Program-made: the position numbers and the translations under genes
The notes under the pieces: model-generated
Database searches by the model: none
Told to the model about the DNA's origin: nothing
The model's input: the letters and a program-made list of their open reading frames with translations, nothing else
Assembly: GCA_018004645.1 (NCBI GenBank)
Contig: JAGNBV010000003.1
Coordinates: 1-63,943 of the forward strand
Direction of reading: 5' to 3'
Source of the DNA: Bacteroidales bacterium
GTDB lineage: Bacteria; Bacteroidota; Bacteroidia; Bacteroidales; CAIWKO01
Length of the DNA stretch: 63,943 nucleotides
In this document: piece after piece, positions 45,438-63,943 of the stretch
How the letters are laid out: each line of letters opens with the position of its first letter
Numbering within the stretch: position 1 is the first letter of the stretch

Positions 45438-46010
45438 ATGTTTAACATTATACTATTTGGAGCACCGGGAACCGGAAAAGGAACACAATCCGAAAATATC
45501 ATTAACAAATACCATCTGGAACACCTGTCCACCGGTGACATCATGAGGGAGGAAATCCGCAAAGGCACCCAGATCGGGGTTCTGGCAAAATCGTATATTG
45601 ATAAAGGCCTGCTGGTTCCCGACAGCGTGATATTTAAAAACCTCTATTATAAAGCTTCGGCCATCAAAAACCCAAAAGGTTTTATCTTTGATGGATTTCC
45701 CCGTACCATCAACCAGGCCGATGTGCTTGACAAGGTACTGATAAAAAAACAATGTCCCATTGCTTTGGTGTTGTATCTCGACGTTACAGAAAAAGAGTCC
45801 TTCAATCGTATAATGTACCGTAGTCAGCGCTCAAACCGTGCTGACGATAATGAAGAAATAATCTGGAAACGTATTGCTGTGTATCACGAACAAACCAAAC
45901 CATTGCTTCAATACTACATTGGTCAAAACAAACTGGTAACTATTGATGGTATGGGAAGCATCGAAGATGTCTTCGGTCTCATTTCAAAGGAAATTGATAA
46001 ATTTATTTAA
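45438..46010 (+). CDS. adk: Adenylate kinase
   Basis: P-loop at the N-terminus (MFNIILFGAPGTGKGTQ), LSTGD, GFPRT. The track ORF start at 45348 overlaps hpt and is rejected. Confidence 0.9.
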   Translation: MFNIILFGAPGTGKGTQSENIINKYHLEHLSTGDIMREEIRKGTQIGVLAKSYIDKGLLVPDSVIFKNLYYKASAIKNPKGFIFDGFPRTINQADVLDKVLIKKQCPIALVLYLDVTEKESFNRIMYRSQRSNRADDNEEIIWKRIAVYHEQTKPLLQYYIGQNKLVTIDGMGSIEDVFGLISKEIDKFI

Positions 46011-46045
46011 AAAAACCTCACTCACACACTCAACCACTGACCAAT

Positions 46046-46276
46046 GAACAATTAACAATTAACAATTAACAATTGGTAATGAACAATGAACAATGACCAG
46101 TGACTAATGACTAATGACTACTTTCAACTTTCCACTTTTTACTTTCTACTATCAACTTTCCAATGAACGATGACTACTGACTACTGACTATTGACTAATG
46201 GCTAATGACTAATGGCTAATGACTAATGGCTAATGGCTAATAACTAATGACTAATGGCTAATGACTAAAAACTAAT
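46046..46276. repeat. Phased array of 33 degenerate heptanucleotides (GACTAAT/GGCTAAT/GAACAAT/TAACAAT/TTNNACT)
   Basis: Reading 7-mers from 46046 keeps one register for 231 nt. Every unit ends in T, almost all in A(A/C)T. There is no ORF in the interval, and the array ends 100 nt upstream of the obg ATG. Confidence 0.85.
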
Positions 46277-46375
46277 AACATAATAACCCAATAACTCCTT
46301 ATCCCTCCACCTAATAACCTAACTAACTATTTCCCAAAATTTCTAACACCTTATAATAAATAACTACTACTTCCC

Positions 46376-47365
46376 ATGTCTGGTTCAAATTTCGTTGATT
46401 ACATTAAAATTCATTGTCGATCAGGCAATGGGGGCAACGGCTCAGCACATCTCCGGCGCGAAAAATACAAACCCAAAGGCGGCCCCGACGGTGGCGATGG
46501 CGGCAGGGGTGGGCACATCATTCTCAAAGGCAATAAACACCTATGGACATTATTGCACCTGCGATACACCAGGCATCTGAAGGCTGCCGATGGCGTTAGC
46601 GGGAGCAGCAACCAGTGTACAGGCGCTTCTGGCGAAGATACCATTATTGAAGTGCCTCTCGGAACTATTGCACGCGATGCAGAAACGGGCGAAATAGATT
46701 TTGAGATAACTCAGGATGGCGAAACAAAAATTTTGCTGGAAGGAGGCCGTGGCGGCTTAGGGAACCAGCACTTCAAATCAGCCACCTTCCAAACCCCACG
46801 TTTTGCACAGCCCGGAGAACCAGGATTGGATCGCGACAAGATTCTGGAACTGAAACTTCTGGCGGATGTGGGATTGGTAGGATTTCCCAATGCCGGTAAA
46901 TCTACTCTCTTGTCGGTGGTTTCTGCTGCGAAACCCAAAATTGCCGACTATCCCTTTACTACCATAGTTCCCAATCTTGGTATTGTCGGTTACCATGAAA
47001 ATAAATCCTTTGTCATGGCCGATATACCGGGAATTATTGAAGGTGCTCACGAAGGCAAGGGACTCGGCTTAAGGTTTTTAAGACATATTGAGCGCAATTC
47101 GGTGCTTTTGTTTATGGTGCCTGTGGATGCCGTTAATATTGCAAAAGAATATAAAATACTATTAAACGAACTCAAACAGTATAATCCTGAATTGCTCGAT
47201 AAAAAAAGGTTGCTGGCAGTGACCAAATGCGATATGGTGGATGAAGAGCAAATAAAAAAACTTCATAAAAAACTCCCTGATGTGCCATTTGTTTTCATTT
47301 CATCGGTAAGTTTATATGGTATTGCGCAACTCAAAGATAAGTTGTGGGAATTACTCAATGAATAG
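46376..47365 (+). CDS. obg: GTPase Obg/CgtA
   Basis: Glycine-rich Obg fold ([26 protein letters not shown]). G1 [10 protein letters not shown]3 DIPG and G4 TKCD motifs. Confidence 0.9.
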
Positions 47366-63468: not shown

Positions 63469-63511
63469 AAGTTGGTTATAGTCGGGGGCTGAGGCTTTCA
63501 AAGTCCCAGGG

Positions 63512-63943
63512 GATGATTTGCTCTCTACTACCATTACTTAATCAAAATGAGCCCTAATGCGAAATTTGGATTTAGTAATGGTAATGCCGGTAGAGTAGCT
63601 GTTATCGTTTATAGCGCGAATGCGCTAATGAACGAATACAGATACCGTATCGGTATAATTCTTATCCCTGCCTACCTGTTGAGCCAGCCATGTTTGAAGT
63701 ATTGATAATCCGCCAACCGGCGGATGATTTGCTCTCTACTACCATTACTTAATCAAAATGAGCCCTAATGCGAAATTTGGATATAGTAATGGTAATGCCG
63801 GTAGAGTAGCTGTTGGCGTTTATAGCGCGAATGCGCTAATGAACGAATACAGATACCGTATCGGTATAATTCTTATCCCTGCCTACCTGTTGAGCCAGCC
63901 ATGTTTGAAGTATTGATAATCCGCCAACCGGCGGATGATTTGC
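63512..63943. repeat. Tandem repeat with a 211-bp unit, 2.05 copies visible, running off the window end
   Basis: Unit starts at 63512, 63723 and 63934. I count 3 mismatches between copies 1 and 2 (63572 T/A, 63604 A/G, 63605 T/G). There is no ORF of 60 aa or more, and the unit is rich in internal hairpins. Confidence 0.9.

Follow-up and report, generated by a model that had tools for sequence, protein, structure and literature searches.

Upstream of obg, in the genome of a Bacteroidales bacterium, lies a run of 33 degenerate heptanucleotides in strict phase, and this locus raises a simple question: is such a tract built for the gene that follows it, or is it carried along by the spacer in which it stands? 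The window, i.e., the whole stretch of 63,943 nt that was analyzed, is an entire contig of a 3.29-Mb genome assembled in 213 contigs (42.6% GC). Among named genomes, the closest are uncultured Bacteroidales bins, and the contigs encoding identical proteins come from anaerobic-digester metagenomes. Measured from the adk stop (46010) to the obg start (46376), the spacer is 365 nt long (Table 1), which is the length given in a preliminary description of this DNA, and the 190-aa adk product is also called in public contigs. The parsing of positions 46046-46276 into 33 heptamers devoid of any register slip, put forward in the same description, was reproduced exactly as listed, and the stops announced in all frames were found in all six of them. 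On the 5' side, the heptamer register extends 1-3 units beyond 46046 (GACCAAT at 46039, AACCACT/CACACTC from 46025) and, on the 3' side, a tail of 99 nt separates the 33-unit array from the obg ATG.

Table 1. Features of the adk-obg region (window coordinates).
Feature	Positions	Strand	Remarks
adk (adenylate kinase)	45438..46010	+	Pfam PF00406, E 5e-47; 10 nt 3' of hpt
Lead-in without G, AAAAACCTCACTCACACACTCAACCACT	46011..46038	+	small indel/substitution variation among strains
Block 1: GACCAAT, GAACAAT x3, TAACAAT x3, TGGTAAT, GACCAGT	46039..46101	+	
Block 2: GACTAAT x2, GACTACT	46102..46122	+	
Block 3: 6 TTCNACT-type units (other phase = ACTTTCN)	46123..46164	+	
Block 4: GAACGAT, GACTACT x2, GACTATT	46165..46192	+	
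Block 5: 12 GACTAAT/GGCTAAT-type units, 14-nt super-period	46193..46276	+	
G-poor tail, decayed 7/8-mers, up to the obg start	46277..46375	+	TRF, unit parsing
obg (GTPase)	46376..47365	+	Pfam PF01018, E 5e-58, plus PF01926

The 33-unit tract is real and stands well beyond chance. Its identity at a lag of 7 nt reaches 0.786 against 0.287 +/- 0.029 in 2000 shuffles (maximum 0.41) and is 0.70-0.73 at lags of 14, 21 and 28 nt. A occupies position 5 of the unit and T position 7, each in 32/33 cases, and TRF independently detects overlapping arrays of periods 7, 14 and 21. Regarding the strand asymmetry that had been ascribed to the tract as a whole, it proved modest across the array (A 89, T 70, C 42, G 30), with a GC skew of about zero in the GACTAAT/GGCTAAT block, and strong only at the ends of the spacer, i.e., in the lead-in and the 99-nt tail. 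The tract is composed of the C-rich/G-poor unit type only and has no complementary partner arm. At the 3' end of the window (63511-63943), TRF also reports a tandem repeat with a unit of 211 bp (2.1 copies, 98% identity) that runs off the contig end.

Strains were compared through contigs encoding exactly the same Obg, PAP2 or Adk protein, and the spacer turned out to be highly variable (365, 351 and 193 nt) rather than invariant in length, between flanks that are 97.8-100% identical. The 365-nt allele is present in at least six assemblies, being complete in L114, L164, L165, L166 and L168 and partial in six further contigs. The 351-nt allele, recovered from three independent samples (L113, L167, L169), lacks exactly one GACTAAT+GGCTAAT pair; this 14-nt polymorphism maps within 46193-46234, in block 5, and leaves 31 units where the window has 33, a whole-unit step of the kind that had been predicted. 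In L113, the lead-in reads AAAAATCCCTCACTCACACTCAACC. Finally, two samples (L112/L163 and L115) carry a 193-nt allele, found with an Obg protein that is 100% identical. Its array consists of different heptamers (GACCAAT, GACTTCT/GCCTTCT), and what it shares with the 365-nt allele is limited to the initial ~15-20 nt, apart from small differences there, and the terminal 10 nt (ACTTCCCATG). The obg array gains or loses whole units, as seen in the 14-nt step, and is swapped wholesale between strains. Replication slippage or unequal exchange would drive these changes, and the origin proposed at the outset, namely slipped-strand expansion followed by drift, is supported alongside the whole-unit polymorphism. 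The same comparison bears on the idea that the tract is an artefact of short-read metagenome assembly. Arrays in relatives are often located at contig ends, and the 5' edge of the obg array coincides with the break of several Logan contigs; however, the identical 365-nt spacer recurs in at least five other independent assemblies, obtained from different samples and with different assemblers, which argues against such an artefact, and the perfectly periodic stretch of the array is only ~44 nt, making a collapse by the assembler unlikely. We consider the chance of an artefact negligible.

Several kinds of signal were sought in the adk-obg spacer. No ORF of at least 40 aa lies wholly inside it, a scan for intrinsic terminators returned none, and the Bacteroidota-type TAnnTTTG (-7) motif is absent from its plus strand. 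A sigma-70 scan yielded weak matches made of the repeat units themselves and no more frequent than in shuffles. At the RNA level, the sense strand of the spacer folds with -27.4 kcal/mol over 380 nt (z = +0.46 vs shuffles), and no structure beyond composition was found on this strand or on the antisense one (z = +1.31). Rfam covariance models gave no match at E <= 1 on either strand between 45900 and 46450.

Across Bacteroidota, the adjacency of adk and obg is kept, with a median gap of 114 nt and many gaps of 10-20 nt. Such short gaps are consistent with co-transcription of the two genes, which are probably read on a single transcript. In the nearest species (G001), whose Obg is 97% identical, the gap measures 154 nt and is free of heptamers. 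Within the genus, 8/14 species carry some heptamer array in this gap, yet with unrelated units (GACCAAT, AAATCTC, CACTATT, ACCATTT, (GGTAAGA)x17 and AACTTTA). An array is present in 0/11 genomes from other genera of the order and in a few more distant Bacteroidota, typically with a G-rich array preceding a C-rich one. Heptamers extend right to the obg ATG in G003, as they do in the 193-nt allele, and in G007 (L007) this ATG is immediately preceded by TAACTGT-TAACTGA-AAACTGT units. Genome-wide, four successive ACTTTCN units were found in 3/18 and four GNCTAAT units in 7/18 same-genus genomes, both being found in 0/13 genomes of other genera, where the reversed control pattern is abundant in one genus; these genus-limited matches show unit turnover, without implying that other genera are devoid of heptamer arrays.

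In several same-genus genomes, the adk-obg gap also contains an inserted ORF followed by a heptamer array beside obg (L016:899-1500 in G006, as well as L013, L014 and L046). The cargo is diverse: a 73-aa hydrophobic ORF in G006, with (GGTAAGA)x17 on the adk side; an ORF with a weak META-domain match, below the Pfam cut-off, together with an unknown ORF and a PD-(D/E)XK-like ORF in G010/G011; and a 422-aa ORF in G004. The adk-obg spacer hence appears to be a recurrent insertion site. Of note, for the second-closest species, G012, as well as for a JGI contig, the same spacer consists of N (L003 / L032 / L111), owing to masking or to a scaffold gap.

Is the tract peculiar to obg within its own genome? 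Other heptamer arrays, whose existence was a point to be checked, are numerous. With a strict threshold (arrays of at least 35 nt), period 7 dominates (n=46), followed by period 4 (n=21), with 0-6 arrays for each of periods 5, 6 and 8-13; a looser threshold gives 86 period-7 arrays in ~43 spacers. Among them, 73/86 (90% of array bases) fall within the 11.5% non-coding part of the genome, and array density per kb amounts to 26.8 nt in convergent, 10.7 in co-directional and 2.3 in divergent spacers (~12-fold between convergent and divergent), these coding and orientation figures being indicative only, as they come from a crude longest-ORF gene caller and from sub-arrays that are not independent. 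Such densities imply that arrays track gene ends and operon gaps and not promoter regions. The units themselves recur at other loci (ACTTTCA/C, GACTAAT/GACCAAT/GGCTAAT, GAACAAT/TAACAAT, GGAGATT and AAGTAGC), four successive ACTTTCN units being counted 24 times genome-wide. Composite arrays at C36, C51, C90 and C150 begin with TAACAAT-GAACA(A/G)(T/G), like block 1, before running into ACTTTCN, and three of the four begin 20-36 nt past the stop of an upstream gene reading toward them. In addition, the obg spacer aligns, in the same block order, with loci on C114, C51, C150, C90, C209 and C123 (75-82% over 110-156 nt). With its units and block order repeated at other loci, the obg tract belongs to a dispersed family and was not built for obg. 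Where a spacer contains a G-rich as well as a C-rich array, the G-rich one comes first in six cases and the C-rich one in none, a count that is again indicative only. We also observed, at C63:31147-32061, a convergent spacer of ~900 nt with eight heptamer sub-arrays (TAGTCAA, ACTTTCA) spaced ~120 nt apart, which suggests a higher-order repeat of array-bearing units.

A particular group of genes stands out in the vicinity of these arrays. The genome contains six matches to PF05635, the family of small 23S rRNA intervening-sequence proteins, including one pseudogene, and one bAvd-like gene; 5/7 of these genes have an array within 100 nt, which holds for 2.1% of genes overall (hypergeometric P = 7e-8). 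The 110-nt flanks of PF05635/bAvd genes pair better than shuffles in 5/7 cases (z -2.6 to -7.7), their arms being mostly G-rich on the 5' side and C-rich on the 3' side, with the exception of the bAvd-like gene, whose C-rich array is on the 5' side. All the PF05635 genes (6/6) are co-oriented with both neighbors. Two cassettes resemble the obg tract. The one at C124:17045-17389 has AAAGTNN/ACTTTNN arms, the ACTTTNN 3' arm matching the ACTTTCN units of the tract. The one on C104 has a CATTAGC 5' arm, which is the complement of GGCTAAT from the tract, and a GGCTTAT/GGCCTAT 3' arm that is closely similar to GGCTAAT. In both, the 3' arm has the same orientation relative to transcription as the obg tract. 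Next to the former cassette, C124 carries a diversity-generating retroelement (~17.4-21.3 kb) with a 152-nt repeat pair of 84% identity (L133:1140-1291, L133:2109-2260). The VR is located at the end of the gene at C124:17461-18918 and the TR downstream, the bAvd-like gene (PF22296, C124:19113-19454) lies between the two copies, and the reverse transcriptase is at C124:20598-21290. An (ACTTTCA)x13 array is found directly upstream of this bAvd gene and an AAAGT/ACTTT arm pair after it.

The association between arrays and PF05635 genes extends to the relatives of this bacterium. PF05635 matches are multicopy in 30 of them (0-16 per genome), and a strict heptamer array flanks 14 of the 26 PF05635 loci for which both flanks are available, vs a 1.8% background (binomial P = 3e-18). 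Units at these flanks include TAACTGA and GAACAAT, and a PF05635 cassette of G021 (L143) has TAACTGA-type arms. One site, between frdA and frdB in the fumarate reductase/succinate dehydrogenase operon, is particularly informative, a PF05635 cassette being located there at C104:4376-4904 (= L172:971-1501). This spacer is empty (7-30 nt) in five genomes. Three genomes have an orthologous cassette there, in a spacer of 441-538 nt, with arms that differ in copy number, G007 and G009 carrying the orthologue, and five have a spacer of 45-126 nt occupied by arrays or hairpins devoid of a gene. Within the genome studied here, PF05635 paralogues share 25-45% identity, giving no sign of recent transposition. 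A search of the available literature library found no paper linking heptamer arrays to PF05635/S23p.

Does the tract then act on obg? The preliminary description suggested a possible switch dedicated to this gene, operating through promoter spacing, DNA curvature or phase variation at a contingency locus. It is true that the number of units varies (33 vs 31, in three independent samples) and that 21 bp equal, by arithmetic, two helical turns. However, obg encodes an essential housekeeping GTPase, similar arrays, present in ~43 spacers, adjoin many housekeeping genes, and they are depleted in the divergent spacers where promoters stand, ~12-fold relative to convergent ones. A dedicated promoter modulator is also disfavored by the lack of a Bacteroidota -7 motif and by sigma-70-type matches that are repeat units at shuffle level, as well as by the 99 nt beside the ATG, which differ between alleles with an identical Obg protein, one of them having the different 193-nt spacer, and by the nearest species, which is devoid of heptamers in this gap. 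Control of obg by any of these means is therefore highly improbable. A binding array for a repeat-recognizing protein, also suggested in that description, would be a candidate role. Acting on RNA instead, the tract could be a transcribed, unstructured and G-poor spacer or leader, or an array for a single-strand-binding protein, tuning the translation or stability of the obg mRNA; possible binders would be S1, a cold-shock protein or a four-helix-bundle protein of the PF05635 type. The essentially unstructured sense RNA is in line with such a role, as are the heptamers that reach the ATG in the 193-nt allele and in G003, the TAACTGT/TAACTGA units directly before it in G007, and the retention of some array in this gap by 8/14 same-genus species. 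We nevertheless judge it unlikely: units are wholly different between strains and species, hence no sequence-specific site is conserved, and the nearest species has no array.

A further candidate origin, suggested by analogy with the cassettes, is that the obg tract is the leftover arm of a mobile element carrying PF05635, or another heptamer-armed cargo, whose gene and 5' arm have been lost. The ACTTTNN (C124:17045) and GGCTAAT-like (C104) 3' arms in the orientation of the obg tract, the adk-obg gaps of G006, G010/G011 and G004 in which a cargo ORF precedes an array beside obg, and the empty, full and gene-less states of the frdA-frdB site would all fit this origin, which we hold as a tentative possibility. 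Indeed, searching with tblastn for the genome's six PF05635/bAvd proteins in 126 loci covering the adk-obg region revealed no PF05635 gene or remnant in the spacer and, as the tract also has no partner arm, its derivation from a cassette would be by analogy only. The divergence of the paralogues likewise speaks against recent mobility, and ectopic recombination or de novo origin could equally spread arrays. Stated more generally, heptamer arrays might be the arms, or leftover arms, of small selfish cassettes, each with a PF05635 (S23p/Avd-like) gene between complementary arms, colonizing transcribed operon spacers in the manner of 23S rRNA intervening sequences; the obg tract would then be a footprint, without its gene, at a site of repeated landing. 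This broader scheme is likewise a tentative possibility.

The explanation that we prefer is that the obg tract is a gene-less, non-folding array of the class formed by STRR (short tandemly repeated repetitive) sequences and LSSR (long simple sequence repeats), which is probably carried passively and has no dedicated role for obg. In this digester Bacteroidales genome, arrays of the STRR/LSSR class would occupy transcribed spacers and gene ends. They would often constitute, in this lineage, the complementary arms (G-rich 5', C-rich 3') of PF05635 genes wedged into operons, and the same kinds of units would also form gene-less arm pairs and solo arrays such as the obg tract. The latter would then ride passively, as an unstructured spacer rich in stops, on a transcript reading through hpt-adk-obg. 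Besides the absence of a partner arm and of any PF05635 trace in the adk-obg loci searched, two observations go against this explanation. With 231 nt, ~21% unit divergence and zero indels, the array is cleaner than simple neutral decay predicts, and something may thus maintain its heptamer phase. Moreover, the recurrence of arrays in the adk-obg gap, in 8/14 species of the genus and in other Bacteroidota, could mean that this position is functional and not merely permissive.

The obg tract belongs to a known, still unexplained repeat class, for which it is ordinary. With it, a Bacteroidales lineage of digesters joins the hosts of heptamer arrays, and public metagenomes reveal, at a single locus, the turnover of alleles with a clean step of two units. 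Its wider value lies in the association of heptamer arrays with PF05635, which is replicated in this genome, at 14/26 loci of relatives and in the different states of the frdA-frdB spacer. Should this association be causal, it would provide a testable mechanism for a 35-year-old unexplained class of repeats and broaden the range of the rRNA intervening-sequence element to include protein-coding operons.

Among known systems, the STRR heptanucleotides of heterocystous cyanobacteria, reportedly described by Mazel et al. in 1990, are an evident point of comparison. GACCAAT is TGACCAA read in a rotated phase, and TGACCAA would be the complement of the unit of STRR2. STRR/LSSR sequences and the arrays of this genome share tandem 7-nt units, many intergenic sites, an over-representation of period 7 and the mixing of related unit types in a given array, and the obg spacer changes fast in length and sequence among close relatives. 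Here, however, the host is an uncultured Bacteroidales and not a cyanobacterium, and the units are AT-rich (GACTAAT, GAACAAT, ACTTTCN). An excess of heptamers among long simple sequence repeats has been reported, in the terms in which PMC4679880 summarizes that work (Mrazek et al., 2007). Intergenic heptamer arrays are also known in Xanthomonas (GGGAATC) and Nostoc (GGGGAYT), where they stand close behind the preceding ORF or near its 3' end and frequently separate ORFs of the same direction, operon spacers such as pecE-pecF included; they vary extensively among close relatives and show no tie to any given function of the neighboring genes (Rehm et al., 2015; PMC4692102). The arrays of this genome are similarly mostly intergenic, located at gene ends and operon gaps, and variable between relatives; their units are A/T-rich without G runs, whereas those of Xanthomonas and Nostoc are G-rich and quadruplex-capable.

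In Beggiatoaceae, Cyanobacteria and five Bacteroidetes, TAACTGA direct repeats precede the start codons of housekeeping genes in forward orientation (MacGregor, 2015; PMC4679880). The same study describes Bacteroidetes with long composite heptamer arrays, the corresponding spacers of close relatives being short and repeat-free, and notes that one CspB protein is bound per heptamer (PMC4679880). TAACTGA-type units occur in the relatives studied here, both before the obg ATG (G007) and as PF05635 arms (G021). The obg tract differs by its units (GACTAAT, GGCTAAT, GAACAAT, ACTTTCN) and by stopping 99 nt before the ATG, and PF05635 genes go unmentioned in that paper (PMC4679880). With the contingency SSRs of pathogens, the tract shares a short tandem repeat and a strain-variable copy number, but its unit is 7 nt long, it is located outside any ORF and, judging from the promoter scans, not between promoter hexamers, and it is one of dozens genome-wide and lies beside an essential gene. 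Lastly, 23S rRNA intervening sequences with an S23p/PF05635 ORF are known in Coxiella and Leptospira, and the terminal stem of the S23p-bearing one of Coxiella is cut by RNase III (Warrier et al., 2016; PMC4990558). The obg tract, having neither ORF nor stem, is unlike them. The full cassettes described here differ from them in their sites, which are spacers of protein-coding operons such as frdA-frdB, and in their arms made of tandem heptamers, but they resemble these rRNA elements in having a small four-helix-bundle ORF, complementary termini and a long potential stem, and in being inserted, co-oriented, within a highly transcribed unit.
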